A program made the position numbers and the translations under genes. Positions 4,861 through 64,000 of a DNA stretch of 64,000 nt are shown here, one piece after another. The DNA lies in contig NC_092351.1 in assembly GCF_963676685.1 (NCBI RefSeq), positions 88,288,001 through 88,352,000 of the forward strand, given 5' to 3'. The notes under the pieces were generated by a model that was not told where the DNA came from, searched no databases, and saw nothing but the letters and a program-made list of their open reading frames with translations. How positions within the stretch are numbered: the first letter of the stretch is position 1; each line of letters starts with the position of its first letter. Origin of the DNA: Mytilus edulis. Lineage: Eukaryota.

Positions 4861-7109
4861 GTATTCTATTGTGTGGTGACTTAAATGCAAGGACAGGGTC
4901 AGAGCCAGATTTTATAGTTAATGATGTTAATGATACACATGAACCAATGTATGATAATTATAGTTGTGATGTTATTCAAGAAAAAAGATGTAGTTATGAT
5001 ATGAAAGTAGATTCAAGAGGTAAACAACTTCTGGACTTGTGTATTGCGTCCAAATTACGTATTTTAAATGGGAGAATGTGGGGCGATTCTTATGGTAAAT
5101 ACACTTGTATGAAGGCAGTGGGTAGTAGTGTGGTTGACTATGTTATCGTGTCAGAAGACTTGATTGCAGACACTTTATTTTTTCATGTTGCTGATTTTTT
5201 ATCAACTCTGTCAGACTGTCACTGTAAACTAACATTTGACCTGTTAGCTAGTTACTCACCTAAAACTAAGGAGCAAGACATTACTATTTTATTTCCAGGA
5301 AAATATATATGGTCAGAAACCTCTACACAAAAACTTCAAGATACTTTATGCCAGCCAAATATTAGAAACAGCATTAAAAAATATTTGGACTCAAAATTTA
5401 ATCTTTCAGAGGACTACAAATGTGTATTGAAGAAGCGGCTAATGAATGTTTTAATATAATAGATAACGCTGCCAGCAAATGTTTAATATTTCGTAAAACA
5501 AATTTAAAAGGTGTACGTAAACATAAAACAAAAAATGGTTTGACCTAGACCTAGTACAAACACGTAAAAGTCTTATTTCTAAAGGTAAGCTATTATCAAA
5601 ATTCCCTTGGGACCCAGTTATAAAAGAGTCTTACTATAAATGTTATAGAGAGTATAATAAGCTACGTAAATATAAAGAAAGGAAATTTAAACAAAACATT
5701 CTTGACAGTCTGGATAATTTAAGGGATAATAATCCAAAGAGTTATTGGAATCTCATTAAAGAATTAAAAGAAGACACTTCGGATGGTCCAGAAAATTCTA
5801 TTCAAAATAATATCTGGTTTTCATATTTTCAATCTTTAAATGTTAACTCTGACAAATTTAAAGACAGATTAGAGGAAATAAGTAAGAAAGTAAAAAATTT
5901 AGAAAAAAATCCAACGTTTTGTGAACTAGATTACAAAATAACCCTAAAAGAAATTTTGGATGCTATAAATAAACTAAAGAATAATAAAGCTGCAGGATTG
6001 GATGGTATTCCAAATGAGATATTAAAATCAGGGGGAAGTATATTTGCACCTGTTTTGCAGAAACTTTTTAATTTAGTATTCTGCTCTGGAACATACCCTC
6101 GCAAATGGTCATTATCTTATTTATGTCCAATTTTTAAAGCAGGGAGTCCTAGTAAACCTGAAAATTACAGAGGCATAGCAATAAATTCATGCATTGGAAA
6201 ATTATTTAACAGTATTCTTAATAAAAGACTTGACATTCATCTTGATAAAAATATTATAATTCATCCATGTCAGATTGGTTTTTCAAAAAATAGTAGAATA
6301 ACTGATCATATGTTTGTTTTAAAAACCATATTAGACAAATATACTAACAAAAAAGGGGGGGAACTTATGCTTGCTTTGTGGACTTTAAAAAGGCTTTCGA
6401 CAGGGTCATACACTGTGGTATTAAATATAAATTATTGGAAAACAACATATCTGGAAAATTTTATACTATTTTAAAAGATATGTACAGCAAGAATGAAATG
6501 TCTGTGAAAGTGGGCAATGTATTAACACCATCTTTCAGCTCGCTAGTTGGGGTAAGACAAGGGGATGTTCTAAGTCCAAACTTATTTAAGCTTTTCATTA
6601 ACGATCTGCCTCCAAAATTTGAGCCAAGTCCAGATGCTGTTGATATCAATGGGCGTAGTATTGATTGTCTTATGTACGCTGATGACATTATTGTATTATC
6701 AAACACTAAAAAAGGTCTTCAAAACCGACTTGATATATTGCATACTTATTGTATTGACTGGTGTCTAGATGTAAATTTGTCCAAAACAAAAGTTTTAATT
6801 TTTAACAAGCCTGGAAAATTTTTGAAGGAATCATTTTATTTAGATAAAGAGGCTTTAGAATGTGTTAATAAATGTAAATATCTAGGGATAGTCTTTACCT
6901 CTAGTGGTCTTTTTCAACAGGGGAAAGAAGAGCTATTCAAAAAATCCTTAAAGGCAAAATTCAAATTAAAAAAAATCCATGTCAGCTTGTAATCCAAGTA
7001 TTGATACTGCAATTCATTTATATGATCACACAATAAAACCAATTTTATTATATTGTAGTGAAATTTGGGGTTCATTTAAAATTAACTCTGCTGCTTGCAA
7101 GAAAAATAG
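4861..7109 (+). mobile_element. Non-LTR retrotransposon (LINE, RTEX-like) ORF2, 5' segment: APE endonuclease + reverse transcriptase, frameshifted, 5'-truncated
   Basis: APE motifs CGDLNAR, LRILNG, SVVDYVIVS, SDCHC (ORF 4767-5459). RT motifs KAAGLDGI, PENYRGIA, QIGF, DFKKAFD, GVRQGDVLSP, YADD, KYLG (5956-6992). Interrupted at 7109. Confidence 0.9.
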
Positions 7110-7790
7110 TACGGAAGCCGTAAGGGGACACACAAAACATTAGAAAATATTTTTTTTAATTCGAGATCACGATAAAACATTACCGTTTTACCGAGATCTC
7201 GATAAAAAATATATCGTTATCTCGATAAAACGAAATTGTTATATCGAGATCTCGATAAAAAAATATATCGTTATCTCGATAAAACGAAACTGTTATATCG
7301 AGATCTCGGATTATTAAATCGTTATCTCGGTTTAATATATCGAGATCTCGATAAAAAAGTATATCGTTATCTCGAGAAAACGAAACTGTTATATCGAGAT
7401 CTCGGATTATTATATCGTTATCTCGAGAAACCGAAACTTTAATATATCGTTATCTCGAGAAAACGAAAGTTTAATATATCGTTATCTCGAGAAAACGAAA
7501 CTGTTATATCGAGATCTCGGATTATTAAATCGTTATCTCGGTTTAATATATCGAGATCTCGATAAAAAATATATCGCAATCTCGAGAAAACGAAACTGTT
7601 TTATCGAGATCTCGGATTATTATATCGTTATCTCGAGAAAACGAAACTGTTATATCGAGATCTCGGATTGTTATATCGTTATCTCGGATTATTTAATTGC
7701 TTCTTATCACGTGTCAACTTATTACACAATGGTGACAGTCAACACGGCGGAAAGAGTAAGTATGATTTGTGTGTTTTAAAGCTTGTTTTA
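7110..7790 (+). repeat. Left terminal inverted repeat with CpG-rich subrepeats (TATCGAGATCTCG, TATCGTTATCTCG, AAAACGAAAC)
   Basis: First ~350 bp is nearly the exact reverse complement of 34380-34730. Looser homology continues to ~7790. Confidence 0.92.
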
Positions 7791-9719
7791 TACATGATGT
7801 TATGGTGATGTGTCACTATTATAGGTGCATTTAGCTGGGAATATATGATATGCGTAAGAAATCTGTATGGCAATATCTGAATAAATCAATTGAACAAATT
7901 CGTCAATTAGTGAATGTTTACAGTATAAACAAAACATGGTAAAGTTCTCTTAGAAATCATACTGTAAACACTGAAGAACACGATCATTTCCGTCAGGAAG
8001 GTAGAAAAAGGGACAGTACTTCTTGATGGGTTGATAAATCAGCGTCCAAACTTTATAGAGGAGGTACATTTTTATGTTTTGATTGTGTTTGTTCATCCTT
8101 TAGAAGAAATATTGATATCTGTTTAATGTGCCATTGACCGTCATATGAACGATCTAGGCTCATAATCTAAGATTTGCTGTAGCGGCCATGTTTTTAATTG
8201 GACCAAAACAAAGGTAGGATTGTTGGTAACATTCCTGCATAGTTTCGTCAAAATCCGTCAAGTGGTTTCAGAGAAGAAGGTGAAAATGTAAAAGTTTACG
8301 ACGGATGACGGACGCAACGTGATGGTAAAAGCTCACACTGACTTTCAGTTAGGTGAGCTAAAAAGGATTATATTTTCATCCCAATTTTTATCAATTATGT
8401 GTATAGTAATCCTTTGGGTAAACATTTTATCAATTCAATGAGATATGAGGAACTCTTTCTTTTGAATTCTATAGTCGGATAATCGGAAGATCTGCTATAT
8501 GTATGTAGACAAAAAGACAAAAATTACAACAAAGTTCCAAAGTCATAACATTTGTATATACTAGAACACACCCGTGATATCACGGGTCCGTGACTGAATT
8601 AAAGTATATAACTATGCGTAAGCCTTATTTTAGTACTAGTATTGTCATCTGATAAAGTCATGCCGATTATAAGTTTCACAGTTTTCTCTGCTTTCAAAAT
8701 CTTTCTGTTTGAACCCGTCGACCTGGATTTTATCAGTTATTTGTAATATTGGAGTATTTTTTAATAACAGCATTGTCCTATATAGGCGAGTGTAATATTT
8801 GAAAAAGACGTCTAGTTAAGGACTTTAATGCACCCACCTAACACACGGCTAATTTCTTTTTTAAATGAAGGAATAATGATTTAACTTTGATTTTTGCCCG
8901 GTCGTCACAAAATCGTACGGTGCAGTTTTTGTAAAATTGACGTTTATTTCGGAAATTAGTTGAAAATTATAAAACTACGACATGTTTTTCAAGCAAAGGA
9001 AATTAGTCGTATCTCTTCTTTTAGACAGAATAATTAAGTGAATTAGATTCTTAGAATAATGAAAAACATTATTTACAAATGCAAATCCGCATGCTTTTGC
9101 ATTCCTTCTAAATATTTGACATTTTGTACGAAAATTTTCATAATCCTGACCTTTTCGGATCTACAATTAAATTTTTATTAAATAATTTTGCACTCTATCC
9201 GTTTTAGAACACACCAAATTACTCATCAGTTATCGTTTTTTCATTCAAGATCAAGACTTTATCTCAACATTTCTTAAAATCACGAGTTTCTGTAATTTTA
9301 TGATGTTGGGTAAAATCACTATAGTTTCCGGAATCCCTTATCTATTTCGTTATCGTTTTTTTACTGAATATATTAGTCGATTTCCGTGTACTTAATAGTG
9401 CTATTAGAGTACTATAAATCATATTTAAACGGTTCTATTTCTATCTTTAACATCAGTGTAGCTTAAATAGATATGAAATCGTCCGAAATTAAGATCAAAT
9501 TTAAGTAAAACATAATTTTTGAGTTCTGTAGAATTACCCCTTTCTAAAAAAGGAATCGTATCGGAAAATTGTAGAAAATCTTCCGAGTCGTGTCAAACTT
9601 TTCACAGTCCAGTGCACAATGAAACCATTTCTATGCTAAAAAGCAAAAACTATCCATTGATTGACATAGATATGCATAGTCTGTCATGTATTTACCACAT
9701 CGAAACTATGTAGTTAAAC

Positions 9720-10850
9720 ACTTAAATGATTGCCGCTGTGGGAAAACTAAAAGATGAAGTTTACAGAAGACTGGTCGATGAATATGAAAAAAAATTAAAA
9801 CATCCCATTTGAAAATACAAAATATCATAAGATTTGCTATAAATATTTTAAAAGTAAGCACAACCTATCATCTTCTGTTTTGTCCGCTGTACAAAGATTT
9901 TGTGCTTCATGTACCAATTCTGCCGACCAGTCTCTTCACATATATCAACGAGGGCAGTAGATCTATAACTCATTCTGATTTGTCTGTTTGTATATTTTGC
10001 AAATTTATAAAGCCTATAAGCAAGGTACACAACTTTATAAGGTATCCTTTGAGGAGCAAACTCAAGCTGTATTGAGTGTTACTACATATATCTCCTACAA
10101 TGATCTGATTTACAAAATAACTCATGATAATTTTACTATTAAATCTTTATACCATCGAGCTTGCATCGCTAAATATTTGTTACAAAATTTGAAATCAGAA
10201 AGTAAAGAGCTATTTAATTCTGAACATAAAACAGCTTTTACTAACATTTCGACGATTAAAGATGACGTGCCTGTACACAAGGAAGTATTCTGGTTAACAA
10301 CTTTAATTACTTGGTCAGTTAACCGGGCTTAATAAATTTCTGCCCCAGAATAGCCGACGAGAAAACTACAGAACATATTATCAGCTTCAACAAAAACTAA
10401 AAATATATGGTCAATTTATAGTTACATATATACAGCATCAACGAGGCCAAGGTACATCCAATATTGTATACAGTAGCTCTATAATTTTGTCTTATGCCGT
10501 AATGACGGAAAATTACTCGTTTAAAATGACAGTTATATATACAGTCTGTCAAATTCAAAGATCTGAGCAGTGACTGCGAAACTGGTTGCAAGCACTTTAT
10601 ACAGCTACTAGTATTTTACGGAAGCATATATGGGGTAAAGTTGTAATCCAATCAGATGAATATCCATTATCTAAAAACATTTCACTGGATTATTCAATTA
10701 AAATTATGCCACCTGCTTTAAAAACATTTCTGTATTGTCTTTTGGATGATGGCGCATCTGCCGCAGTTAATAAAGCGTACGATATTCCTATTGACAAAGT
10801 TCTTAGATGTATGGCGTTAGTAGAATGTATGTATATCTATAAATATTTTT
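9720..10850 (+). pseudogene. Decayed N-terminal part of an Academ-like transposase
   Basis: Fragments KYHKICYKYF, CIFCK, LYHRACIAKYLL, ATSILRKHI..MPPALKTFL across frames, with stops and frameshifts. YHxxC motifs recalled from Academ proteins. Confidence 0.6.
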
Positions 10851-13141
10851 TTTTACTCTTTTTCATTTAGGTTTATTATTACAAATGCACCGTATTTATG
10901 GACACACCTTTGATAACTATTAACAAGTTTGACTGCTCAAGAGATTAGAAAAATTGAAAATGGGGCATACATTCTACGTGGCATTATTTTTCTTCTGGGG
11001 GTCAACATTTTATCCAAGACAAGTCGACCTAACTACAGAAACAATAAAAGTTCTCCGTATGACTTTGGTTTGGTAAAAGGCAACATCGGTCCGGTATGAT
11101 GTCATCCAAATTGCTACAAGATTTGATCTGTTCACGCATTGGTATAGGTATAGGGGGAGGGTTGAGATCTCCAAAAACATGTTTAACCCCGGCGCAATTT
11201 TACGCCTGTCCCAAATCAGGAGCCTCTGGCCTTTCTTAGTTTTGTGTGATTTTTTATTATTATTTCTTGAGTATATTTCGAAGCTTAGTATGACGTCCAT
11301 TATCATTTCAAACTAGTACATTTTTGTTTATGGGCCAGCTGAAGAACGCCTCCGGGTTTGGGAGTTTCTTGCTGCATTGATGACCCATTGGTGATCTTCG
11401 GCCGTTGCCTGCTTTTTGAACGGGTTGGTGTCTCTTTGACAAATCCCTCATGTCCATTCCCAATTTTTAATTCAATCTGTATATAGTAGATCTTGTGTCC
11501 GCTTTGAGCAAAACCTCTGCTGTACTGATATATGCCCATGCCAAGGAAGTTGTCTTTGTATGGATATGTTGACCGATAAGAATGGTGAGATTACAAGTTA
11601 AAATGAAGCTATAATATTCCGATATCGCAAGATTTCGACACCTAAATGGTCCAACATCCCATTGGTCCGACGTTTCGATCATTTAGGTTATACTCTAACG
11701 GAATTTTAACATAAGAAAGCCAAATAAAAGGTTCAATATTAGGATAACCGTGTCCTCCGTTTGAAACGGTGAAACAATATATAAAAAATTAATACTTAGT
11801 GCCAAAGAAGCCGAACGTCATCACTAGCGTAATTCAAAATAAGTACAAACTACTTTGTCAAGTGTTGTTTGATTAGTTAGATATCTCAAGATACACGGCG
11901 GCCGACTAAAGTAAAATCAAACTTAGTTTGATGTACAATGAGTGATCATATTTTCCTTGTGATGTTTTATATTAAAATTGTCACAATTTTGTTGATATAA
12001 ATATACTAGTAGCACTTTACTCATTTTAGTAATGTTAGTTAGACTACTCTTATCATATCTGATTAAGTGATGTAAATGAAATTGCGATATGATCCAGACT
12101 CAACATATTGCACTACAATAATAAAATAATTCTGCCCTATGGTTGTCTGATCTTGAAGCGGTTGACAGGCTTTCAAATTAACAGGAGACCATACACTTCC
12201 TCAATTTTAATGTACAGCTCATCATGGGACTTTTCTAAACAATTCAAAATACGTCATATGTTATATTTCCCCCTTGCTTCAAATATTTTGTTTCGGATTA
12301 CTTTATATCAAATTTGCAGATATGTGTTTGTAAATACGTGCAATCAAATGATATGGAGGTATTATAAGATTTAGATAATGCAAGGGCGACTACATATACA
12401 TTTGTGTGACTTAATGGTTGATTTTCAAATATTCCGAGAGAAAACGTTACGTAACATGCGTTACCGTTAAAATCAACCAAAATTAATAAGATTTATTCCT
12501 ATGAAGAATAAATCCGGTTATCGGAGGAAAGTGGGCTTACGTTTTGGGAGTTGTCCCGCTTTGAACACGTGGTGGAACTTGTTATGTATTATGAGTCACG
12601 TTAATTATTTTAACCTTGATAACTGTGACGTCATCATTCTTTCTTTACCACGTACGATACAGCAGAGGGAAGACGCAAAAAATTGGGTTCTGTATGAATT
12701 AACTAATGTTTGTTTTATGATGACTCCAGAACTTAGGAATGAAGTTGTTCAGATTGTCAATGGCAATGCCCTTATTCACTCTCCAGCTACTGTTAGTGTT
12801 ACATCTCCTGACTCAGTCAATGAAAGGCAACAATCGAATACAGGTATAACACAAAGTTCTAATATTTGCCAATAACTAGTGCAAATGGTAATCTATGTTT
12901 AAATGTTTCACAAATCTCGGAACAAAATAATTAATGGTGAATATGTAGATTTAGGTATATATTGCTTTAATACAAATTCAGGCACAGAACAGTAGATACA
13001 AATGGACAGCTGATTATCCAAACTAAACTAAGTAAAAAGATTACTGATATTAACACATGGATAGATGCTTTCCTTATTTACATAAGTATTTATGTTGGTG
13101 TACATTTAGAAGATGCACCTAACTTAACCGAATACATACAT

Positions 13142-13400
13142 GTTAAAATATTTTGTGTATCCGTGTTTCTAGTGCAAAATTTACAAAATCTCTCATTAGA
13201 GGGTATTGTTGGTCTTGCATACCTACCAGTTTCTATTGATAATGAGTGGGCACTTATTCTTAATTTAGTGATAAATAAAAAGTTAACCACAGTTTCCATC
13301 TTTTATCTTAAGATAGTTCAAATTTAATTTAATTTTGTAGAAATCTTCTAGTTTCTGTTTGAAATTACTATTACAATGCTTGTTAAAGGGTATTCCAATA
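13142..13400 (-). mobile_element. LINE ORF2 3' fragment
   Basis: KLRISAHSLSIETGRY..ERFCKFC, the same motif class as 35460-35620. Confidence 0.7.
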
Positions 13401-13537
13401 TATTTCATTAATTCAGATAATTTATTAGACCACAAATTTTCTCTGTACTAAGTTGATATTTTAATAGGATTGATTGATTGTTGGTTGCTTAATGTCCAGT
13501 GGCAAATATTTCAGGCATATCTATCAGGACAAATATT

Positions 13538-15890
13538 TACACAGTGTCTGTAAATTGTGTCATTTTAGGATAATTTAGTTTGTATCAAGCAGATACATTG
13601 TTATGACACAGTGTCTGTAAATTATGTCTTTTTAGAATAACTTAGTTTGTATCAAGGAGATATTCTGGTAGAACACAGTGTCTGTAAATTGTGTCTTTTT
13701 AGGATAATCTAGTTTGTATCAATTAGATCCATTGATAGGACAAAGTGTATGTAAATTGTGTCTTTTAAGGATAATATAGTTGTATCAAGTAGATACATTG
13801 ATATGACACAGTGTCTGTAAATTGTGTCTTTTAAGGATACTATAGTTTGTATCAAGTAGATATGTTGATAGGACAGTGTCTGTAAATTGTGTTTTTTAAG
13901 GATAATATAGTTTGTATCAAGTAGATATGTTGATAGGACATAGTGTGTTTAATTGTGTCTTTTAAGGATAATATAGTTTGTATCAAGTAGATATGTTGAT
14001 AGGACACAGTGTCTGTAAATTGTGTCTTTTAAGGATAATATAGTTTGTATCAAGTAGATATGTTGATAGGACAGTGTCTGTAAATTGTGTCTTTTAAGGA
14101 TAATATAGTTTGTATCAAGTAGATATGTTGATAGGACACAGTGTCTGTAAATTGTGTCTTTTTAGGATAATTTAGTTTGTATCAAGTAGATACATTGATA
14201 TTACACAGTGTCTGTAAATTGTGTCTTTTTAGGATAATTTAGTTTGTATCAAGTAGATACATTGATAGGACAGTGTCTGTAAATTGTGTCTTTTAAAAAT
14301 AATTTAGTTTGTAGATATGTTGATAGGACAGTGTCGGTAAATTGTGTTTTTTAAGGATAATTTAGTTTGTATCAAGTAGATACATTGATAAGATACAGTT
14401 TCTGTAAATTGTGTCTTTTTAGGATAATTTAGTTTGTATCAAGTAGATATGTTGATAGGACACAGTGTCTGTAAATTGTGTCTTTTAAGGATAATATAGT
14501 TTGTATCAAGTAGATATGTTGATAGGACACAGTGTCTGTAAATTGTGTCTTTTAAGGATATTTTAGTTTGTATCAAGTAGATACATTGATATGACACAGT
14601 GTCTGTAAATTGTGTCTTTTAAGGATAATTTAGTTTGTATCAAGTAGATATGTTGATAGGATACAGTTTGTGTAAATTGTGTCTTTTAAGGATAATTGAG
14701 TTTGTTTGTATCAAGTAGATATATTGATATGACACAGTGTCTGTAAATTGTGTCTTTTAAGGATATTTTAGTTTGTATCAAGTAGATACATTGATATGAC
14801 ACAGTGTCTGTAAATTGTGTCTTTTAAGGATATTTAGTTTGTATCAAGTAGATACATAGATAGGACACAGTGTCTGTAAATTGTGTCGTTTAAGGATAAT
14901 TTAGTTTGTATCAAGTAGATACATTGATATGACACAGTGTCTGTAAATTGTGTCTGATAAGGATAATTTAGTTTGTATCAAGTAGATACATTGATAGGAC
15001 AAAGTGTCTGTAAATTGTGTCTTTTCAGGATAATTTAGTTTGTATCTAGTAGATACATTGATATGACACAGTGTCTGTAAATTGTGTCGTTTAAGGATAA
15101 TTTAGTTTGTATCAAGTAGATACATTGATATGACACAGTGTCTGTAAATTATGTCTTTTAAGGATAATTTAGTTTGTATCAAGTAGATACATTGTTAGGA
15201 AACAGTGTCTGTAAATTGTGTCTTATGAGGATAATTTAGTTTGTATCAAGTAGATACATTGATAGGACAAAGTGTCTGTAAATTGTGTCTTTTAAGGATA
15301 ATTTAGTTTGTATCAAGTAGATACATTGATAAGACACAGTGTCTGTAAATTGTGTCGTTTAAGGATGATTTAGTTTGTATCAAGTAGATACATTGATATG
15401 ACACAGTGTCTGTAAATTATGTCTTTTAAGGATAATTTAGTTTGTATCAAGTAGATACATTGAAAAGTTTGTATCAAGTAGGATACAAACTGTATCCTAT
15501 CAATGTCTGTAAATTGTGTATTTTAAGGATAATTTAGTTTGTATCAAGTAGATACATTGATAGGACACAGTGTCTGTAAATTGTGTATTTTTAGGATAAT
15601 TTAGTTTGTATCAAGTAGATACATTGATAGGACACAGTGTCTGTAAATTGTGTATTTTAAGGATAATTTAGTTTGTATCAAGTAGATACATTGATAGGAC
15701 ACAGTGTCTGTAAATTGTGTATTTTAAGGATAATTTAGTTTGTATCAAGTAGATACATTGATAGGACACGGTGTCTGTAAATTGTGTATTTTAAGGATAA
15801 TTTAGTTTGTATCAAGTAGATACATTGATAGGACACAGTGTCTGTAAATTGTTCCTTTTTAGTATTTTTGATTTGTATCAAGTAGATACA
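13538..15890. repeat. 67-bp satellite array, about 35 copies
   Basis: Consensus ACACAGTGTCTGTAAATTGTGTCTTTTAAGGATAATTTAGTTTGTATCAAGTAGATACATTGATAGG. Period measured from 15541 to 15608. Confidence 0.95.
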
Positions 15891-21769: not shown

Positions 21770-22678
21770 AAATGAAAGAGATACAAAATAAATAAATTGG
21801 TTTATGCTCTCGCTCTTTTGTATTTGCATGTAGTGATATACAAAGCAGTACCTTACGAAAATGGGTGTAACCGATGTTCTTCTATCACACAGGTACAAAA
21901 TATGGTAGTTTTTTTTTTTTATAAAGATCTTGGCTTTTGACTTTGTAAACGTTCCAAAATGATACGTGGAAATAACCATGCTAATGATTTTTGTTGTATA
22001 TCAGACCGAGTGCGTACATATATAGGTCTTTTGATACTTGAACTGTCAATCAACTGTTTGCTAATTACACTTGTTCCATCTTGTTCCGTATGTCAATTCT
22101 CTGAGATATTCTCCAATGCTTCTCTTTCTTTTGCTCTATCTCACACCGTATCCAAACGTTGGTCTTTTGTTCTTTTTGCTAAAAAAAATTCTTCTTCTTT
22201 TGCGCTCTCTTGCACCGTATCCCAACCTTTTTCTTTTCTTCTTTTAGCTCAAAATAGCTCTCCTCTCACAACTTATCCCCACCTTTGTCTGTTGTTTTTT
22301 TTTTCTCGCTCCAATGGGCTCTTTTCCGTTCCTATTCCCGGTACCCCCGGTGATCTACACTGCTCTGATCCGTGCTCACAACCTTGCTTTTCCTACTTTT
22401 GGCGTTATTTTGACAGCAAAGGAGGAGAAGAGAGACTGTGGCCGATGCAAAATGTAACCATGAGTCGTATGAGCAAGGCAACGAGTCATACGAAAAAGCC
22501 ACGAGTCGTATGAGCAACCATACGAGTAGTATGAGGTACCCTGCGAGCAACGACTCTCTCGGTCTCTTTCACTCACTTGTTAGGTGTTTGTGTCTTGTGT
22601 CCAAAATTCCTCAAAAATAGACATGAGTCGTATTAGCATAGCTTTGAGCACTATGAGCAACATTTCGATTCGTATGAA

Positions 22679-23450
22679 AAAGAGTGGACACACTGAAATG
22701 TCTCGCCTGTTCCAGTGTTCATAATATAACTTATGTTGTAAGTATAAAAAACAAGTTTAAACCACAAGCATTATAAATAAATTAACATTTAAATGATCAA
22801 TGTACATGAGACGAAGGTGAGATAAACCCTTTCAGACAGAAATGTAGTTCATGCACTCATTCCATACAACAAATCTAGTTTACCTATTGCTAAAAGTATC
22901 TCCGAATAAACCTCTTAAAAAATAACCTTGACCATGAAATATAGGTCAAGATCAACTTACACCTACTTAACAGACATACACACCTTACAATTATTCCCTA
23001 CACCAAATATAGTTATACTATCCCTTTAGTATCTGAAAGAAGGCCAAATCAGATAAATGTAACATTGGCCAATGAACCATGACCTTGAGGTCAAGGTCAA
23101 ATGATTATTGTCAGAATGGAATCCATACACGAAATATAATTGACTTCTGAGAAATAGACCATATCACAAATTTTTAATTTGGCCAGTCAACCATGAAAAA
23201 GAGGTCAAGGTCAGATTATTATTGACAGACAGACATGTACACCTTACAAACATTCCATACACCAAATATAATTGACTGGATACTTATAGTATCTGCAAAA
23301 TAGACCAAAACACCAAAAAAAATATACTTTGACCACTGAATCATGAAAATGAGGTCACGGTCAGATGTCACCTGCCAGTTGGACATGAACAACTTACAAT
23401 CATTGCACAACCAATTATAGAAGACCTATTGCTTTATAGATATGGACTTA
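22679..23450. mobile_element. Decayed copy of the HINE-like element at 2638-3732
   Basis: Shares AAGAGTG.ACAC.CTGAAATGTCTCGCC and the CCATGAAAA.GAGGTCAAGGTCA cores. Confidence 0.7.
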
Positions 23451-26400: not shown

Positions 26401-27721
26401 ATGGCATTTTCCATATCGACCCTATTATCAGCCCTTGACCCATATCTATACCTTGGGCTAAAGCCCTTGGTCCGATATGAGAGTCTTTGGCTATTAATTG
26501 GGCCGATATGGAAAATGCCATGTAATAATCTTTAATAATACCATTTTCAAAATATATCCAATTAACAGCAAATATGGTCAATTTTGAAGTTTAAGGGGAT
26601 AAACCCCAAATAAGGGATTGTCGTACGACTTGCCGTACAATGGAGACTTTAGCAGATCTTCTAATTCGGTAGAAGGAATGTTGACTCCTTTAGTCTCTAC
26701 ATGGCCTGGGACTATAATACTAACGGGACTGGAAACCGTTACACCAATCAGTGTAATAATATCTGCATCACAGCCGTTAGAACGAGACTTTACCTGCGCT
26801 ATTTATTGATGCGCCATATTGTTTTGACAGTGACATCGTGCCTTGATCTTATAATTTCGGTAATTTGTTTTTCTATTTTATAGTTACAATGTATTAGTAA
26901 TGATTATCCTTAACATAAACATGATTACTTTAATGATAAAAGATATCCCGATCTTTGACAGTTAATATAAATCACCAAATCCCGCCTTAATTGTAAAAAT
27001 TAACATATAAACATTGAAATTTTCAGGATTAAAATAGCGTGGGGACGATGTGGAAAAAAGTATATGATTCATAAAATGTCTTATAACTTTTGATTGAAAA
27101 GAATTACGCAAGTTCGGTTTGTTGTAAAGTCATATTTATAGGTGATAGTTTGGATTTGCCTTTTTTTATTTTTTAGTATAATAGTCCCAGATATGGCCAA
27201 ATAGGCTGTCCACATCTCCAAGGTCTATTTTGTAGTAACGGCAGCCATGTTTTTCGGAAAATGGCTATGTGCGACACAATTTTTTTAGAAAATATACCCT
27301 AAAGAGGATTGTGGCAATGTTTCGTCTAAATCCCTTTAGTGGCTTCATACTTTTGTTAACTTAACAGATAAACAAAATGGACACCATTGAGTGATGACAA
27401 TAGCTTTAATACAAGCACCTTCGGTCCAGGTGAGCTCACAAGAGAAAGTTGTGGTGGGGACACAAATTGGTTTAAATTCATATGCATATTATATGCATTC
27501 TTGTATGCAACACACTTTCTCATGTTGGTTAACAATCATGTAGAGCGGACACAATTTGGACGGACTGACAATCTAATTACTTTAGGGCTCCTGTTGATAG
27601 TCAGCGTGGCCTTAATTAACAGTGTGACATGTGGATGACAAATAGACAGACATTTGTATACCATAAAACTTCCAGCAAAATAATTTAAAGAGCTTATAAA
27701 CATGATTAAAACTGTGAAAGT

Positions 27722-27922
27722 ATAAATAAACTCATCATAGATACCAGGACAAAATTTAGTATATACGCCAGACGCGCGTTTCGTCTACAAAAGACTCATC
27801 ATTGACGCTCGAATCCAAAAAAGTTAAAAAGGCCAAATAAAGTACAAAGTTGAAGAGCATTGAGGACCAAAATTCATAAAAGTTTTGCCAAATCCAGCTA
27901 AGGTAATCTATGCCTGAGGTAG
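27722..27922 (+). repeat. Interspersed repeat family D (ATAAACTCATCATAGATACCAGGAC...)
   Basis: Reverse-complement relatives at 45400-45460 and 45790-46215. Confidence 0.65.
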
Positions 27923-30640
27923 TATAAAGTACCCCAAATTATAATGTAGTATTGTGTATTGAAATGTGAATATACATGTAATAATGATAATGTACCTTCT
28001 CTTCTCCAATTGTTTGTATTGATTCATCTGATGCATTTCCATTTCTTAAAAATTCAAATACTTCACAGTAGTCATCCATTTCTTTCTGTAAAACAAAGAC
28101 AAATATCAATATGATAATAACATCAAGAGTAATAACAAAATTACCGAACTGATGAGCAAAAATCCAGGGCAGTAGTCAATAAATAAAAACAATAAATTTA
28201 AAAAATCGATAAATAACGCTTATCAGGGGCAATAACTCTTCCATGGAGAAAACACATACCTTTGAATTCAATTAAATAATATTAAATCAGGCCGTTGCGC
28301 AAAAATATGGAAATTCGCCAACAATGGGAGAAAAGATGTTCCCCATTTTGAGAAACAGATAATCGTATGGAAAACTTTACTTTAGTTTTTGGGGTTATGG
28401 CTGATTAAGTTATACTCAACCAGCACTGACTTAAACATGCTTACTTCAGACTTTTTCATATTCACGACGGGTATTCCTGGCACACGGAACCGCAATATCC
28501 ATAGCACAGAGTTCTAGTTCTGTAGGTCAGTAGTGAGAATGTGGATCTAGGGAGTCCTCTGCTTTCAGAGATTGACGGAATCGAGATGGCACATAGATTG
28601 TGGACATGTCACAATGAATGCACACTTACTGTCTGTGTATTAAATCTGGACAGAAAGGACCGTAGGCAAATAAAACTCTGTTGAGTCAGAAAATTTCAGT
28701 GCGTGAAATTTTATTTATTTATTGCACACATCGAAACAAAGCATGTTTTTCCCAAGATACAGGAATTTACGGTTAATCCAGCTATTTTGGAGAAGGGCAG
28801 CACTGTTGCATGGACCATTTGATTTTCAGGGGTGGGGGGATGGGTTGGCTTTTCATGTGGACCCAGATTTTTTTCCCCAGCAAATTTAGGGCCAGGATAA
28901 TTTTATCTAAGAAAACCCAGATGCCTCCCCCCTCCCCCTCAGAAAAATCAAATGGTCTGTACCTTTGAGGCCCACTTTTCTCTTTGAGCATGTTGAGATC
29001 AATTTATTCCACCCTTCCTGGACAAATAATTTCCCCCCTCAAATTTCAGGATATTATAAATAGTCAGGCCCCCTGAAGTAAAAATGGTCGGTCCTTTAGG
29101 GATATTTGAACTTGAATCCGGGTCTGTTTGCTCTAATTCACGTTGCCCTAGGACCTGTTCACTCTACTTCTTGTTTGTCCTATGTCCGTTCACTCTGATG
29201 TTTCATACATGTTTCATATATTTTATTGTTTGTTGGAAATTCCACCAACTTTTTATCTTGTTTTTGCTGTATATTTTCTCATTTAATTTATCTGCAAGTT
29301 ATGTAATCACTGTGATACAATTTTATTGTATTGTCTAAATTGTTTTACATGTATATACGTTTGTGTGCTTTGTGATTTTTTTCCCTTCATAAAGTTGTTT
29401 TACTGTATTGAGACTTTAAATCAAGGTGTGTCATGACTTATCGTGTTCTGTATTTGATCACATTTATACATTTTATACATTAACTCGGAGAGAACAGACA
29501 CCATGTATTTTCTCTTCATAATATATAAATGGTTTTACATTACGAATTTTTGGGCCCCTTTATAGCTGGCTGTTCCATGTGAGCCAAGGCTCTGTGTTGA
29601 AGGCCGTACCTTGACCTATAATGGTTTACTTTTATAAATTGTTATTTGGATGGAGAGTTGTCTCATTGGCATTCACACCACATCTTCCTATATCTACATG
29701 TATCATGTCTATGTATATATGTTACAGTGAATTTGTATAATCAGGCATTATGTAGAATCCCTGATTTTTATGGGAATATGTAGAATCACTGAAATCATTA
29801 GTAATTATATATAATCCCTGAAAATGACCAGTGATTTTACATACTCACTGAACATGTTAATGATTATTATACAAACTCCCTAATATGATTTCAGGGATAA
29901 TCAATAATTTAAGATTCCTTTGTTTAATAATCTTATTTTAATATAATAGACAAATTATAATATTTTTCTTTCATATTCCTTTCCAAATGAGATAAATCTG
30001 CTTTTAAACACAGAGGGTGATCTTAAAGATATAACTTACAGGGTTTTTAGAAAAAGTTGAAGCTGACTTCACAATTACTAAAGTATTTTTAATTGGAAAC
30101 GAACCTAGGGCGAACGAAATCCATGGGCGAACGAATCCACCACAAACTGACCTAGGCCAGGGCGAACATGTAACTAGAGTGAAACGGTCCAGTTACCCTT
30201 TAACTTGAAATGCCGGAGTGAGGAGGGGGGGGATTTGATTTATTTTTCTCAGTAAGAATATGGATTTATAACGTTGGTGAGACAATGCCAGAACATTTAA
30301 TTATTCTTTGAGATGGCATTATTATTCTGTATGAAAGATCTTTGCATACAGCATAATAATGCCACCTCAGAAAAGATCCTCTATCAAATTCGTAGGAAGT
30401 CATCCCAGAAAAAAAATAATTAAAAAAGCCTTGCCAGACGTCATATGCATAGACGTAGAAAGGCGTCCCAGAAAAAAAATTAAAATAGCCTTGCCAGACG
30501 TCATAATTATTTTGACTAGTCTTTTTCCTGAAAAGTCAGGATCGCAATGAGTGTTGTTTGTTTCGGAACTTTAAACAAAAGCCCCCCTGTTTAAGATTTA
30601 AATGGTCGGTCCTTTATAAAACTTAGTATGGCTGATCACT

Positions 30641-32548
30641 GGTATCCGGTCGTTCCGGCCCCAAACCGATCCGGCCCCAAGTCAATCCGGCCCCAAGTCG
30701 ATCCGGCCCAAGTCGTTCCGGCCCACGTCGATCCGGCCCCATAATAAAATATGAATAAACTATATTCACTATATGGAGGAATTTGTGACAAATTTGAACT
30801 GTATAAACGGAATTTGCAAAAAGTGTCGATGATGGATCACAACAGGTAAACGAAGTATTGAAGTACCAGTTAAAGAACTACTTTAAATCGATACGTAACT
30901 GAGTGTTAGTTTAGTCTTAGATGCATGATTTTTTTATTAGTTGTTAGTGGCTTTGAACTATAGTTATTGTGTCTATTTGTACAGCAGCTCCAATGATATT
31001 TTAAAATGTGAAGATATTTTCAAAGTTGACTTTGAATGTCATGGCGATTTTTATTTTATTTACTTCTCACACAGAGTAGCTCAATAAATATTTACAGTCC
31101 AATGGAACCGTAAAAATTTAACTCATCATTAATGTCTTGTTTAACCAAATCATTAGTCTATAATTGGTTTGTTTATTCAATAATTGTCTGATGATTGTGA
31201 ACTAAGGTAATGCCAATCGTAATCACTTAATTCAATCAAATCCTGATTAATTAAAGTTACGTTATCAACAAGGTCTTTGTAGTTTGATCTTTTGTTTGGT
31301 GTTTGGTGTTTATATAATAATAATTAATTGTATTTTTTTCAGGTAACATCAGAGGCTTCTATAACACATGTTACACTTGTTTTTCTTTTGTAATATCGAA
31401 TATAGTCAATTTATTTTTTTCTTAAAATTGACAATACTTTGAATAGTTGTGTGTAGATAAAATAAACCCAAGTAATATGAGTATCCATTATTCTTTATTG
31501 CAAGAAAATAACAAACCAAAGACACTAAATGCACATGTTGGTCCCATAATACACAAGGAAAAGCCATTGTGATATAAAAACAAACGCATTCTGTCTTCTC
31601 TTTTATAGAAAGAACTAGGCAAATCTAACAACATTTCTCAATTTGAGAATTTTAAGAACTTTTAAAAAAGAAAAACAAAATTTGTATGTATCAGCTTGGG
31701 GATCGGCCTGTACCGTTGTGTATGTAGCTATTTGTTATAACACAAGATAAAAGACGTATTGGATTACAGTCGGCGTTTTACGTTTCCGCAAAAAAAAAAA
31801 TCTACGTTTCCGCAAAAAAAAAGTCTACGTTTCCGGAAATAAATACCTTACTACTTTTCCGCGAAAATAGTAACCATTCCGGAAAAAATATATTAAAGAT
31901 AATTAATCTGAGTACCTTGAACCGTTGATTGTAGTAGCATGAAATTTTTGTAATAGCAGTATGCATTGCGCATTTAAAGTCAATTTATCTACCTCGGGCT
32001 GGAGATTTAGTCTTCGGGTTGTGCACAAATCAATAAGCAGATCCCACATTTTGATAAAAAGTGGAAGTAACACAAACACAAGAGGAATGAAGTTGCCATT
32101 TTACACCCATGTATCGAATAGTTAACCGTGCCATCCATGCAAATATCACTTGAGTTATTTCATTACATAGACAATCAAAGACATTTCAAGTTGGCGAAAC
32201 ACAAAAATATAACGATTCCGACATCATCATCTTTCACTAAGGTGAAACTTTCATATTTTTTTTACTTCTAGTATATTGTAGATAGAAGATCAGAACCCTT
32301 TTTGTATGCTCATCTAAAGAAAATATTTTTCAAAGGCCTTTTTTTTTTACCGTACACAGTACACCTTTTACATTATAATTAAAAGAAATCAGAAACATTT
32401 ATGAATTACAATTAATATATATCTTTATTTTTATTCCTTATAAATATATTTTTTATTGGGGCCGGATCGACTTTACATATGGGCCGGATAGACGTGGGGC
32501 CGGATCGACTTGGGCCGGATCGACGTGGGGCCGGATCGACCCGAACGC
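30641..32548. mobile_element. Non-autonomous foldback/MULE-like DNA transposon
   Basis: Inverted terminal arrays of GTCGATCCGGCCCC units (30646-30741 vs 32458-32541). Perfect 9-bp TSD CTGATCACT (30632-30640, 32549-32557). Confidence 0.85.
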
Positions 32549-33239
32549 CTGATCACTTAACATCTTGAATGTGTCGAAGTGACTGCAAACTTCTGCAAAA
32601 ATAGTGGTGAAAAATACGCTATATTCTAACATGTCTTACCTAGTTCATGGAAAGTATAATAAAGGGGAAAGATACGAACCTTATTGTATGTGTATAATAC
32701 CTCCTACTAAGGAGCATCACCATAAGGTATGCTGTAGAGGAGGACATATTAGCACATTGTTTCGGGCCGTGACAGATTAATGTGAGCATTTGCCTATCCA
32801 GTTTCAAAGACAGGCCGTAACGGGTCTTACTAACAGAAAGTTAACCATCCCAAAACTTAAATAAACAATACAAGACCATGCTTGCATAATTAAATGCATG
32901 CATGTTAGGGTGCCATTAAAACAAGAAATGAAACAAAACGAAACGTAACGAAACGAATTAATAACCGAAACAAAACAAAACACATTGAAATAAAATAAGA
33001 ATTTGAGTAATACACTAAAAGAGAAATAACTTTATTAGCCTCATATACCATATATATACGAACCCATAAATACATTGACACTCACCATAGGCACTTGTCT
33101 CAGAATTTTCAAGCTATTATATGTATATCTTTTTTACCAAGAGTTTTTGGAAATCGTTTTTATATATCATATCTCATAACTATATATAGGGTCTATATTT
33201 TTGACTGAAATAGTTTAGGTACATCGCAAAATACGCATA

Positions 33240-33830
33240 TAAAAAAAAGAAGAGGTGGTATGCTTCCCAATGAGAAAACTCTCCACAAGGGACCAAAAAT
33301 GACACAGAAATTAACAACTATAGGTCACCGTACGGCCTTTTACAATGAGCAAAGCTCATACCGCATAGTCAGTTGTAAAAGGCCCCGAAATGACAAATGT
33401 AAAACAATGCAAACAAGAAAACTAAGGCCCTAATTAATGTATAATAAATGAACGAAAAATAAATATGTTTGTTTAATGTGTTACATATTTGTATTTCGTT
33501 CATTTTTTATATAAATAAGGTCGTTAGTTTTCTCGTTTGAAATGTTTTATATTGTCATATCGGGGCCTTCTATAGCTGAGTATGCGGTATGGAATTTGCT
33601 CATTGTTGAAGGCCGGACGGTGATCTATAGTTGTTAATTGTGGAGAGTTGTCTCATTGGCAATTATACCACCTCTTATTTTCTATATGTAACACAACAAC
33701 AAACGACAACCACTGAATTACAGGCTCCTGACTTGGGACAGGCACATACATACATAATGTGGCGGGGTTAAACATGTTAGCCGGATCCCAACCCTCCCTT
33801 AACCTAGGACAGTGGTGTAACAGTACAAGT
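33240..33830. repeat. Interspersed repeat family C (AAAGAAGATGTGGTATGATTGCCAATGAGACAACT...), here with an internal inversion
   Basis: Copies at 23450-23600, 29550-29690 (reverse), 38730-39290, 44925-45005, 58175-58606 (reverse). Confidence 0.75.
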
Positions 33831-34039
33831 TCTACATAAGACATGTTTGTTTACTGTAAAAATTGACTAATTGACGAATTTGTGAAATTGCTTCACTCAC
33901 ATATTGCCATACAGATTTCTTACCCGTATCATATGTTCCTATGTGAATGCACCTATAATAGTGAAACATCCTGATCACATCAAATATTGGAAGTAACTTT
34001 CCGGGCTTCTTTATCATGCATATCGAGTGAACAGTCATT

Positions 34040-34730
34040 CAAACAAGCTTTGAAACACACAAATCATACTTACTCCTTCCGCCGGGTTGCCTGCCACCTC
34101 TTGATCCGCCATTTTGTAATCAGTTAACAAGTGATAACTAACAATCCGAGATCTCGATTAAATAATCCGAGATAACGATATAATAATCCGAGATCTCAAT
34201 ATAACAGTTTCGTTTTCTCGAGATAACGATATATTAAAGTTTCGTTTTCTCGAGATAACGATATAATAATCCGAGATCTCAATATAACAGTTTCGTTTTC
34301 TCAAGATAACGATATATTAAAGTTTCGTTTTCTCGAGATAACGATATAATAATCCGAGATCTCGATATAACAGTTTCGTTATTTCGAGATAACGATATAT
34401 TAAAGTTTCGTTTTCTCGAGATAACGATATCATAATCCGAGATCTCGATATAACAGTTTCGTTTTCTCGAGATAACGATATATTTTTTATCGAGATCTCG
34501 ATATATTAAACCGAGATAACGATTTAATAATCCGAGATCTCGATATAACAGTTTCGTTTTATCGAAATAACGATATATTTTTTATCGAGATCTCGATATA
34601 ACAATTTCGTTTTATCGAGATAACGATATATTTTTTATCGAGATCTCGGTAAAACGGTAATGTTTTATCGTGATCTCGAATTAAAAAAAATATTTTCTAA
34701 TGTTTTGTGTGTCCCCTTACGGCTTCCGTA
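34040..34730 (-). repeat. Right terminal inverted repeat
   Basis: Reverse complement of 7110-7790 with a different order and number of inner subrepeats. Confidence 0.92.
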
Positions 34731-34736
34731 AAATAG

Positions 34737-34756
34737 TGATTATCTATTTGAATTAA

Positions 34757-34792
<36 letters not shown>

Positions 34793-35800
34793 ATTTTATA
34801 TTGTAGTGAAATTTGGGGTTCATTTAAAATTAACTCTGCTGCTTGCAAGAAAAAAAGTGATTATCTATTTGAATTAATATAAAAAAAAAAAAATATTTGA
34901 ATTTTATATTGTAGTGAAATTTGGGGTTCATTTAAAATTAACTCTGCTGCTTGCAAGAAAAAAAGTGATTATCTATTTGAATTAATCTACATAAATGATT
35001 ATTTGGAAAAATCACATTTCAGATATTTAAAGTATATTCTTGGTGTAAATAAGAAAGCCTCAAATTTAGCAGTGTTATCAGAGGTTGCAAGATTTCCTCT
35101 TTATTTTTCTGTCATTATATCTATGGTAAAATATGTACACAGGCTTAACAAGTTGGACAAAGGGTTACTTTATGATGCTTATGTTTGTAATAAAATTTTA
35201 GATGCAGAAAACATTAATTGTTGGTATTCATCTATGAAATATGTACTTCAATCACTTGATATACAAAATTTAGATACAAAGCTCAATAAATTAATTAAAT
35301 TTGTAAAAGGTAAACTTTGTAATAGTTTTAAAACATTTTGGTTGGTCAAAAGATCTGAAACCTTATCACAAGGTAATAGTAAATTAGAAAATTATTTCAA
35401 CCTCAAGACTGACTTTGTAAAGGAGGCTTATTTATCAATTAAAGATTTTAGTATAAGAAGAGCTATATGTAAAATGAGAATAAGTGCTCATGATCTTAGA
35501 ATTGAGAAAGATAGATATAGTAAAAAATACATTGAGAGAACTTAACGTCTATGTCATCACTGCTTATCACATGGATCAAATTCTATTGAAGATGAGACCC
35601 ATTTTACAGTAAATTGTCCATTATTTGATGAACAGAGGAAATTATTATTTGATAAAGTTATCACTTTTTGTACTAATTTTAAAGAACTACCTAATGATAA
35701 GAAATATTTCTGGCTGTTCACAAATGAGCATTTACCAACTCTCATTTGCCTAGGAAATTACATTATTAAAGGTTTAGAAATAAGATCCAGATGTAAACAA
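34737..35800 (+). mobile_element. LINE ORF2 3' segment (continuation of 4861-7109)
   Basis: LEKSHFRYLKYILGV..AVLSEVARFPL..KMRISAHDLRIEKDRY..stop..LCHHC..EDETHFTVNCP zinc-knuckle-like end. Confidence 0.88.
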
Positions 35801-35846
35801 AATCTTGAACTGAATTTTAATGTGCGTATTGTTATGCGTTTACTTT

Positions 35847-36883
35847 CAGGGGTTAAAAAATCCACTAGCCCGACGCCCGGGACTAGATCATTTGCGCCTC
35901 GGGCAATCAAAACTTTAACCCAATATGCCCGACGGACTAGTAACAAAACATTATTGTCGTTTCCAAAACAGATAGTGGAAAATCCCTTCATCCCTATTCT
36001 ATCTTAGTCAATCAGATTCAATTACGTCATCCGGGATTCGAAGCATTTGAACTGGTTTGTACAGGTCTAGGGTTGCATTCAATATCGTAGCGGCTACTTA
36101 GGGCTATGCAGATTTATGACTATTGAACGAGTAGCTAGCCTAGCTGCTACATAGATATTGATAGCAGCTAGGCTAGCTACTCGTTCAGTAGACAAAAATC
36201 TATGTAGCACTGCGTAACCCTACGATATTGAACGCAACTCTGTTGTACAGTTACATGTTTTAAAAATAGAACAAATAACTCAGGGTGGACAGGTATCATC
36301 TATTGATTGCAATATCTCACACTTTTAATATCGATTTCTCAGTACAGGGGGTATTGTACATTGCATCTGTCGAGATTTTCAATTAATCGGTAGATGAAGG
36401 GGGTACTATTGAGGCTGAAAATTCATCTTGAAAAAATGTAAAATACGATCGGGAAAAGCGGAAAAGAACATATCTAGTGACATGGACAGAAAGATTTCCC
36501 TGGGCAAGGTCGGTTGTGGCGCCAGGATGAAATTTCTGAGACCATGTTCTGCGAATATTGCCAGTGTTTTCCCGAGCATCCCAATAAAAGGTCTCCCTTG
36601 TATGTGTGGACAACTAATATAATAATTAAACCACTTGTTTCACACGATAAAACCAATAAAAATGTTTTCTCTGACAGAAAATTAACTAGTTTAAAACGGT
36701 GTATAATGTCCCCTTCAAAACATTACACCCACCATGTATTATGCAGCAAACTCTGATTTGTAAGGCATACATGGGCTAGGAGGTTAGTTTTGATGGGCTA
36801 GCAGTTCTTCGAACAGGGCTAGTAAAATCCTGCTGCCAATAAGTCCTGGGCTAGTTATCTGGAACAACATTTTTTAACCCCTG
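35847..36883. mobile_element. Non-autonomous hAT-like element with 5-bp TSD
   Basis: TIR CAGGGGTTAAAAAAT / ATTTTTTAACCCCTG, TSD ACTTT, repeated GGGCTAG subterminal motifs. Interrupts a family A repeat. Confidence 0.75.
36067..36242. mobile_element. Palindromic MITE-like element
   Basis: GGTTGCATTCAATATCGTAG / CTACGATATTGAACGCAACT ends and a central TGAACGAGTAGCTAGCCTAGCTGCTA inverted pair. Confidence 0.65.
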
Positions 36884-37222
36884 ACTTTACTACATTGGTT
36901 AGAGGTATAGGAGGAGGGTTGAGATCTCACAAACATGTTTAATCCCGCCGCATTTTTGCGCCTGTCCCAAGTCAGGAGCCTCTGGCCTTTGTTAGTCTTG
37001 TATTATTTTAATTTTAGTTTCTTGTGTACAATTTGGAAATTAGTATGGCGTTCATTATCACTGGACTAGTATATATTTGTTTAGGGGCCAGCTGAAGGAC
37101 GCCTCCGGGTGCGGGAATTTCTCGCTACATTGAAGACCTGTTGGTGACCCTCTGCTGTTGTTTTTTATTTGGTCGGGTTGTTGTCTCTTTGACACATTCC
37201 CCATTTCCATTCTCAATTTTAT
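36884..37222 (-). repeat. Interspersed repeat family A copy inside the LINE 3' UTR
   Basis: Near reverse complement of 505-817. Confidence 0.8.
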
Positions 37223-37430
37223 ATGAAATAATATAATATTTTATTGTTATAAGATTTAATATAATAGTTATATAAACAACATGTTGTGTTAGGCTCTGAT
37301 CCTGTCCATAATGTTATAGTATGGTATTAGTTTTCTGTTTTGCTTTTTCCAATCATATTGTGTTGTAAAATGATGCCCTTTATGGGTTCTTGATTAGATT
37401 AATAAAATTCTTATTCTTATTCTTATTCTA
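37223..37430 (+). mobile_element. LINE 3' UTR ending in AATAAA and an (ATTCTT)n tail
   Basis: AATAAAATTCTTATTCTTATTCTTATTCTA at 37401-37430. Confidence 0.65.
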
Positions 37431-60016: not shown

Positions 60017-60058
60017 CCTGCTTTTCAGACCGATACCTGTAGGAAAGAATGAAATAAA

Positions 60059-63878: not shown

Positions 63879-64000
63879 CTGAAACGAAAATCAAATGTAA
63901 GAATACATTGACGAAGTAAATTGTAAATTTAAGTTACCAAAATACACACAACAATCATTACATATCTATAACGAAACAAAAAAATAGACTTGATTCTAAA

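Follow-up and report, generated by a model that had tools for sequence, protein, structure and literature searches.

How does a pile of mobile elements six levels deep come to stand at one point of a genome: through insertions accumulating in place, through the single jump of an already loaded transposon, or through something in between? The question is raised by a stretch of the mussel Mytilus edulis genome (contig NC_092351.1, positions 88,288,001 to 88,352,000; the whole 64-kb stretch is called the window here), in which, from the outside in, a long interspersed nuclear element (LINE) contains an IS3EU DNA transposon, the transposon a Helitron, the Helitron an Academ element, and the Academ a split-direct-repeat retroelement enclosing a LINE fragment and a 67-bp satellite array. 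The pile-up is genuine, and all of its layers are known types of element. Directly visible are the order in which the elements enclose one another, their junctions, the intactness of the spliced IS3EU transposase, the damage to a HECT gene and the non-autonomous state of the inner elements. We propose, with a probability of about 0.6, that the nest was assembled in a mixed fashion from pre-nested modules, some of it as carried cargo and some as later additions, and we infer that it represents neither six independent recent insertions nor necessarily one jump. All dating below draws solely on the 64-kb window and on protein relatives.

A first-pass annotation of the stretch, made by a model, had delimited four of the inner elements (7110-34730, 8561-18811, 8783-18335 and 12484-18050), and their termini, target-site duplications (TSDs) and repeats show these spans to be exact; the sixth level that it described, a LINE C-terminal fragment plus the 67-bp array inside the split-repeat element, is present as well. 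Further inserts that it had not listed lie at 11137-11471 (in the Academ), 30641-32549, 35847-36883 and 36884-37241. Its statement that junctions are readable at nearly every level holds for levels 2-5, but the outer LINE and level 6 have no readable TSD. The five transposition chemistries that it counted are four, namely target-primed reverse transcription, DDE cut-and-paste (twice, in IS3EU and Academ), rolling circle and tyrosine recombinase, while the superfamilies do number five.

The IS3EU element and its host LINE

The two outer levels comprise the following features.

4861..7109 (+): level 1, left part of LINE open reading frame (ORF) 2, 5'-truncated, with apurinic/apyrimidinic (AP) endonuclease and reverse transcriptase (RT); Pfam Exo_endo_phos_2 and RVT_1
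7104..7109 (+): left copy of the 6-bp TSD, AAATAG
7110..34730: level 2, IS3EU/GingerRoot DNA transposon of 27,621 bp, with terminal inverted repeats (TIRs), TSD and transposase
7110..7938 (+): left TIR, with CpG-rich internal tandem repeats and transposase exon 1 inside
7729..7755 (+): predicted transposase exon 1, 9 codons and a GTAAGT donor, in a phase that fits exon 2
18852..19667 (+): transposase exon 2, with D119, D178 and E214 (numbering of protein P0002); Pfam rva_4, E 4e-23
21446..21769 (+): transposase exon 3
25277..26145 (-): last exon of the second gene, HECT-like, with the Cys of the catalytic motif kept
27996..28085 (-): exon 2 of the second gene, 72% to the N-terminus of P0121
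30641..32549: TIR element nested in intron 1 of the second gene, with an 8-bp TSD, TGATCACT, and degenerate GG..CC ends
33842..34730 (-): right TIR, with exon 1 of the second gene inside
34074..34112 (-): exon 1 of the second gene, 13 codons and GTAAGT, the mirror of transposase exon 1 in the right TIR
34731..34990 (+): right TSD, then a triplicated 85-bp LINE segment with poly-A fillers
34901..35800 (+): right part of LINE ORF2, 76% amino acid (aa) identity to P0153 and reaching the P0153 C-terminus
35847..36883: insert in the LINE 3' untranslated region (UTR), a TIR element with CAGGGG..CCCCTG ends and a 5-bp TSD, ACTTT
36884..37241: insert in the LINE 3' UTR, a common repeat 93.5% identical to 484-818
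37242..37430 (+): LINE 3' end, with AATAAA and a short-repeat tail

IS3EU families are described as having TA..TA ends and 6-bp TSDs (PMC10045372), and fungal members as ending in TAYGG..CCRTA (PMC12730594). The mussel element fits this form with termini TACGG..CCGTA, and AAATAG flanks it on both sides (6/6; chance of a 6-mer match 0.0007). Its TIRs are CpG-rich (observed/expected 3.7) and, as had been claimed, nearly identical: the terminal 153 bases are perfectly inverted (153/153), 297/298 and 350/355 positions agree over the first 300 and 357 nt, and similarity extends to about 830 nt. The three transposase exons, joined across GT-AG introns, encode 388 aa and a stop codon with no internal stop, and their end is found in P0002, an M. 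edulis protein to which one exon is 100% identical. Relatives number 548 among 758 candidates, the protein clusters concerned have 13 and 11 members, and the homology to relatives already includes residues ahead of the first Met in exon 2. Compared by eye with 14 IS3EU rows of a supplementary alignment, the core is closest to IS3EU-1_CGi and IS3EU-1_TC. Since the predicted exon 1 lies inside the left TIR, the Helitron would occupy transposase intron 1.

IS3EU-related elements encode two proteins (PMC10853768), and here, too, a second gene is present, although broken. It is HECT E3-ligase-like and convergent with the transposase; its relative P0121 is a 761-aa HECT protein with 18 cluster members. 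Residues corresponding to about 320-645 of P0121 are deleted at about 25625 with a frameshift, an in-frame stop lies near 25525, and the window yielded nothing for HECT residues 30-134 and 318-648, with E 0.01 as the best value in a 1.9-kb sub-region. The intact integrase of the first-pass annotation is therefore correct for the transposase, which is free of lesions, but not for the element as a whole, whose second gene carries the deletion of roughly 1 kb, the frameshift and the stop. The first exons of the two genes seem to be mirror images of each other, one in each TIR; GTAAGT comes directly after both, and each fits the phase of its exon 2. An exact-word search of the open-access literature found no HECT-bearing IS3EU, although Repbase entries or supplements may already describe one. 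The first intron of the second gene also holds two inverted common-repeat copies that form a 450-bp imperfect palindrome (33239-33690).

The host is recognizable as a LINE by its ORF with AP endonuclease and RT and by its short-repeat 3' tail; it presumably belongs to the CR1/L2 group, and its homologues are mostly unnamed. Aligned against two relatives, P0152 and P0153, its ORF2 is continuous across both sides of IS3EU. The left part, 89-94% identical in aa to P0152 within in-frame segments, has four frameshifts (near 5420, 5530, 6360 and 6975) and the right part a single in-frame stop at 35545, which makes five lesions in about 3.1 kb. No TSD of the outer LINE was found, the longest shared word being 8 nt and overlapping the tail. 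An HSP70-family gene is encoded on the opposite strand; beyond its stop codon the LINE tail follows after about 15 nt, directly behind AATAAA, and the 32-kb nest may lie within the 3' UTR of this gene. The gene (37445-44891, -) is one of two divergent HSP70-family genes, the other at 49212-55218 (+); both are presumably HSPA12-like.

Age of the landing and of the inserts

Two clocks bear on the landing of IS3EU. The TIRs have 1 mismatch in 298 aligned bases and 5 in 355, and the transposase differs from its relatives at 1/260 aa (P0001), 2/226 (P0010) and 3/195 (P0003), giving a combined upper-bound age of 0.28% (0.08-0.62%). From its aa identity, the divergence of the host LINE would be roughly 2-3.5% at the nucleotide level, and IS3EU thus appears to be a recent arrival, at about 0.1-0.6% divergence, whose host LINE is older.

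At least 11 first-level repeat inserts lie within IS3EU, and small repeats are found there at 20742, 27720, 29528 and 30641. Nine of the 11 have partners in the window outside the element and are 72-96.5% identical to the best one, much as outside-outside pairs are to each other (70-93.5%), and several interior repeats are short fragments 13-27% away from any partner. Calibration on the three inserts of the LINE, which is crude given three events, few copies per family and possible subfamilies, yields 1.2-4.5 inserts expected after the landing and a probability of 4e-8 to 0.007 for at least 11. The count being too high for arrival after the landing, IS3EU probably came with older repeats as passengers. 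The suggestion in the first-pass annotation that the element moved with its passengers is to this extent backed by the number and divergence of the small intronic repeats set against a young landing, whereas a joint move of the whole pile is not shown; nor do the passengers reach the roughly 20 kb of intronic sequence suggested there, as the Helitron nest measures 10,251 bp and a sum by hand puts the other recognizable inserts at about 4.5 kb in all.

The same measurements bear on ordinary sequential insertion in place, according to which everything arrived after IS3EU had landed and the youth of the element is only apparent, through gene conversion or selection. Such a history would accommodate the similar insert densities of the LINE (3 in 3.6 kb) and of IS3EU (11-13 in 17.4 kb) and the expectation that, over the whole history of transposable elements (TEs), a genome acquires tens of depth-6 nests, and decayed non-autonomous families can be mobile, as are, in trans, degenerate copies of the IS3EU-related Styx (PMC10853768). 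Yet two independent clocks, the TIR pair and the transposase, both read below 1%, and several interior fragments, at 13-27%, exceed the divergence between the host LINE and its relative, which makes this history quite unlikely. Insert density was also tried as a discriminator and rejected, since on its own it separates no models; age was used instead.

Depth six alone is ordinary at genome scale. In a simulation of uniform insertion at 50% TE (chosen from the 47-56% of PMC10294476) and an assumed genome size of 1.5 Gb, about 27 depth-6 elements are expected per 1.5 Gb. With only the youngest 5-10% of the genome available, the simulation leaves about 0-2 bases at depth 6. Given the youth of the transposon that encloses them, some layers were probably pre-nested on arrival.

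The Helitron and Academ layers

The third and fourth levels occupy the following positions.

8561..18811 (-): level 3, non-autonomous Helitron in transposase intron 1, with 695 bp of own, non-coding sequence
8783..18335 (+): level 4, non-autonomous Academ with 3,651 bp of own sequence, termini TAGGCGAG..CTCGCCTA, TSD ATA
11137..11471: insert in the Academ, a 335-bp common repeat 80-81% identical to 484-818 and 36884-37241

Helitrons are marked by a 5' TC, a 3' CTRR with a subterminal hairpin, and insertion between A and T without a TSD. The element here starts with TC, ends in CTAG with an 18-nt palindrome forming the hairpin, and sits between A and T; its target is a TA run, so that a TSD of 2-6 nt is formally possible. 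Its insertion point divides a TA-rich palindrome of 20 bp into two equal halves (8551-8560 and 18812-18821).

For the Academ, a 3-bp match such as ATA would arise by chance with a probability of 0.036, but once its flanks are joined again they match, right across the insertion site, a repeat internal to the Helitron itself. Its putative transposase remnant (about 9726-11600) contains at least five frameshifts, counted over 850 bp, and a stop, and the DDE core was not seen in it. The 28 homologues of the remnant are unnamed, none of the five scanned reaches a Pfam cut-off, and the protein atlas gave no match for an Academ homologue; we assign the remnant's motif to Academ tentatively. Support from the termini comes from the curated families in the supplement of PMC10294476, where TAG opens 9 of the 10 distinct families listed and an additional match, Academ_M.edulis_14, agrees with the mussel element in its first 8 nt and in subterminal motifs; the first 12 of the 33 supplement files contain no motif match. 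AcademX makes TSDs of 3-4 bp (PMC10045372).

A relative of the remnant, P0125, reads through the same frameshift, so the family would have spread when already broken. As Academ copies share this frameshift, inner decay does not date the insertion. The first-pass annotation had taken decay of the inner elements to mean that they are older than the outer one, an argument that fails for the Academ and likewise for the split repeats described next (1 difference in 683 positions).

The split-repeat retroelement and its cargo

Inside the Academ, levels 5 and 6 are arranged as follows.

12484..18050 (+): level 5, non-autonomous split-direct-repeat (Ngaro/PAT-type) retroelement, built as A1, gag-like remnant and cargo, B1A2, spacer, B2
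13093..13450, right end approximate (-): level 6, C-terminal fragment of a LINE ORF2, adjoining the truncated gag-like remnant near 13115
13539..15891 (+): 67-bp satellite array of 2,353 bp

Split direct repeats define Ngaro and are also found in PAT and VIPER (PMC8547959, PMC4157794, PMC9210276). In the mussel element, A1 (12484-12715) and A2 (17109-17340) are identical at 232/232 positions and B1 (16662-17112) and B2 (17600-18050) at 450/451; there is no TSD, TAAT is common to the junctions, and B1 and A2 overlap exactly at the TAAT of both outer junctions. While the family calls of the first-pass annotation agree with published features for IS3EU and Academ and with the termini for the Helitron, its Ngaro-like label has to be widened: no remnant of RT or of a tyrosine recombinase (YR) was found in the element, Ngaro and PAT are hence inseparable, and we have filed it as non-autonomous Ngaro/PAT-type.

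The remnant, which we tentatively take by eye to be gag from its motifs, has about three frameshifts in 400 bp, and the protein atlas gives no match for it. The LINE fragment, for which a narrower span of 13093-13302 (-) is also given, is matched by 63 of 120 LINE homologues (best E 8e-10) and has no tail and no TSD. Satellite monomers differ pairwise by 7.3% (24 full-length of 33 parsed). Against this divergence and the gag-like frameshifts stands the single difference in 683 repeat positions, which leads us to think that the 5.6-kb element was probably retrotransposed as its own composite together with the satellite; gene conversion between the split repeats is the alternative. Bivalve satellites have mainly been described inside Helitrons (PMC8268682).

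Three further observations concern this layer. A strong imperfect hairpin at 16577-16690 (z -5.3; 0/200 shuffles) straddles the start of B1; of this hairpin, B2 has the right half only. The interior at 13001-16000 is CpG-depleted (observed/expected 0.13-0.32), and the split repeats are not (0.85-1.34). At 59027-61165 (-) lies a truncated retroelement of DIRS/PAT type whose frames for YR and RNase H-methyltransferase are intact; it was considered as the autonomous partner and rejected, as neither DNA nor tblastx similarity was found.

The split repeats give an age of 0.15% per copy (0.02-0.41%), and in a simple model with the IS3EU age as an upper bound the probability that this element is younger than the landing is about 0.8. 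It is here that a single cut-and-paste event, in which the whole 27.6 kb landed with Helitron, Academ, split-repeat element and satellite aboard, has to be weighed. The age intervals do overlap, the position of the nest in intron 1 would have allowed the transposase to stay intact, and the landing looks younger than most of the other inserts. Set against this are the figure of 0.8, which falls if the IS3EU age is merely an upper bound, the broken second gene and a size well above that of published relatives. Nor was a sister copy seen among the bacterial and archaeal genomes searched with a TIR 20-mer: the one match, in an alphaproteobacterial metagenome-assembled genome, had no further similarity, and 1.08 were expected by chance. 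We consider such a single jump unlikely.

Assembly of the nest

The assembly from pre-nested modules that we favour would have started with the insertion of the LINE, by target-primed reverse transcription, behind the HSP70-family gene, followed by its decay to roughly 2-3.5%. Meanwhile an intron-rich IS3EU lineage would have kept moving by DDE cut-and-paste while common mussel repeats, hidden by splicing where they fell in introns, gathered in its introns and spacer, until one loaded copy landed recently in the LINE and generated the 6-bp TSD. The Helitron and the already broken Academ would form an older composite that came either aboard IS3EU or later as a Helitron unit; we lean slightly towards at least these two having been aboard at the landing. 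Youngest of all, and probably added last, would be the split-repeat element, brought in by retrotransposition in trans when its gag-like remnant, LINE piece and satellite were already combined in a 5.6-kb composite.

Several points weigh against this assembly. P0001, P0003 and P0010 could be alleles of the locus rather than paralogues; P0125 and P0126 come from unnamed sources; best matches within the window overstate age if subfamilies exist; the insertion rate is taken from three events only; and gene conversion can homogenize TIRs and split repeats alike. No inner junction was seen shared by a second copy in the genomes searched, which were bacterial and archaeal only. Mobility generally falls as cargo gets longer. 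The 27.6 kb of the mussel element are twice the 12.9 kb of the largest reported GingerRoot (PMC6839031).

The right flank of IS3EU brings in one more explanation, that the assembly or a chimera of haplotypes has juxtaposed repeats. The 85-bp LINE segment that spans the IS3EU target (7048-7109 and 34731-34990) is present in three copies, of which only the first contains IS3EU and has T where copies 2 and 3 and the relative have A; the two extra copies thus represent the empty site with the ancestral base, and could stem from break repair off an empty allele or from an older duplication. This poly-A-joined triplication, with its empty site of different base, is what an artefact might leave, and the near identity of A1 to A2 and of B1 to B2 could mislead an assembler. 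Each layer, however, has its own family-specific junction signature, the LINE ORF, the transposase exons and the Helitron are each continuous across their inserts, B1 and A2 overlap exactly at TAAT as at both outer junctions, and a 90.6-Mb contig has an annotated transposase identical to this one, at what may or may not be the same locus. An artefact is very improbable.

A broader picture, in our view doubtful, would have mussel IS3EU elements as large, cargo-tolerant transposons in which each TIR provides promoter and first exon to one of two convergent genes, transposase and HECT E3 ligase. Able to move 27 kb in a single step, they would take dead Helitrons and Academs to new sites, along with a tyrosine-recombinase retroelement that is loaded with satellite, with nests copied as units genome-wide and satellites dispersed by retrotransposition.

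Neighbouring features

Outside the nest, a single 665-aa frame at 61931-63928 (-) matches DUF229 (E 7e-124) and, weakly, sulfatase. Tandem arrays at 2250-2680, 2744-3560, 22776-23432 and 43474-44002 comprise a 21-bp minisatellite, a 147-bp satellite and a 41-bp array; within this set, the 147-bp satellite has a 72%-identical copy inside IS3EU. Scans with Rfam and for tRNAs gave no matches in the window.

Comparison with known systems

The junctions of this locus are clean enough to test whether nests copy as modules. If they do, neither nesting order nor the decay of coding sequence is a safe basis for dating, and DNA transposons rich in introns serve as vehicles for dead repeats. Two further features deserve attention: an IS3EU with a HECT second gene and TIR-encoded mirrored first exons, and a split-repeat retroelement that probably carried a 2.35-kb satellite. 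An exact-word search of the open-access literature found no specific report of nests transposed as a unit, though Repbase entries or supplements may already describe one.

Among published elements, IS3EU/GingerRoot and in particular IS3EU-1_CGi of the Pacific oyster (PMC10045372, PMC6839031, PMC12730594) resemble the mussel transposon in termini, 6-bp TSD, the DDE core motif by motif and, likewise, a second gene in opposite orientation. The mussel element is much larger, however, at 27.6 kb, or 17.4 kb once the Helitron nest is subtracted, against 3.9-12.9 kb (PMC6839031), its TIRs measure 830-890 nt against 100-150, its second gene is HECT-ligase-like where fungal IS3EU have alpha-kinase and TET, and both of its genes seem to begin with a first exon inside a TIR. 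The Helitron shares 5' TC, 3' hairpin with CTAG, A-T target and an internal tandem unit with non-autonomous bivalve Helitrons, but carries or received a 9.55-kb Academ nest. With Academ_M.edulis_14 (PMC10294476) the Academ has in common TAG termini, the first 8 nt, subterminal motifs and a 3-bp TSD, and it represents a related subfamily rather than the same family, being internally deleted, non-autonomous and split by two inserts. The split-repeat element has the A1-interior-B1A2-B2 order, identical repeats and lack of TSD of Ngaro and PAT (PMC8547959, PMC4157794, PMC9210276), with an A repeat of 232 nt close to the 236 nt of DIRS-53_XT; it differs in having no RT, RNase H or YR, in a 259-nt spacer between A2 and B2, and in an interior replaced by a LINE piece and the 2.35-kb satellite.

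Deep TE nests, for their part, are known and expected. Those of wheat chromosome 3B, with up to eight layers (PMC4290129), and Ngaro elements in virophages (PMC8547959) are likewise elements within elements whose order can be recovered. Wheat 3B, however, is a chromosome of 85% TE, whereas the mussel nest mixes five superfamilies in a genome of 47-56% TE (PMC10294476), and it differs from the known nests in that it appears to include pre-nested modules.

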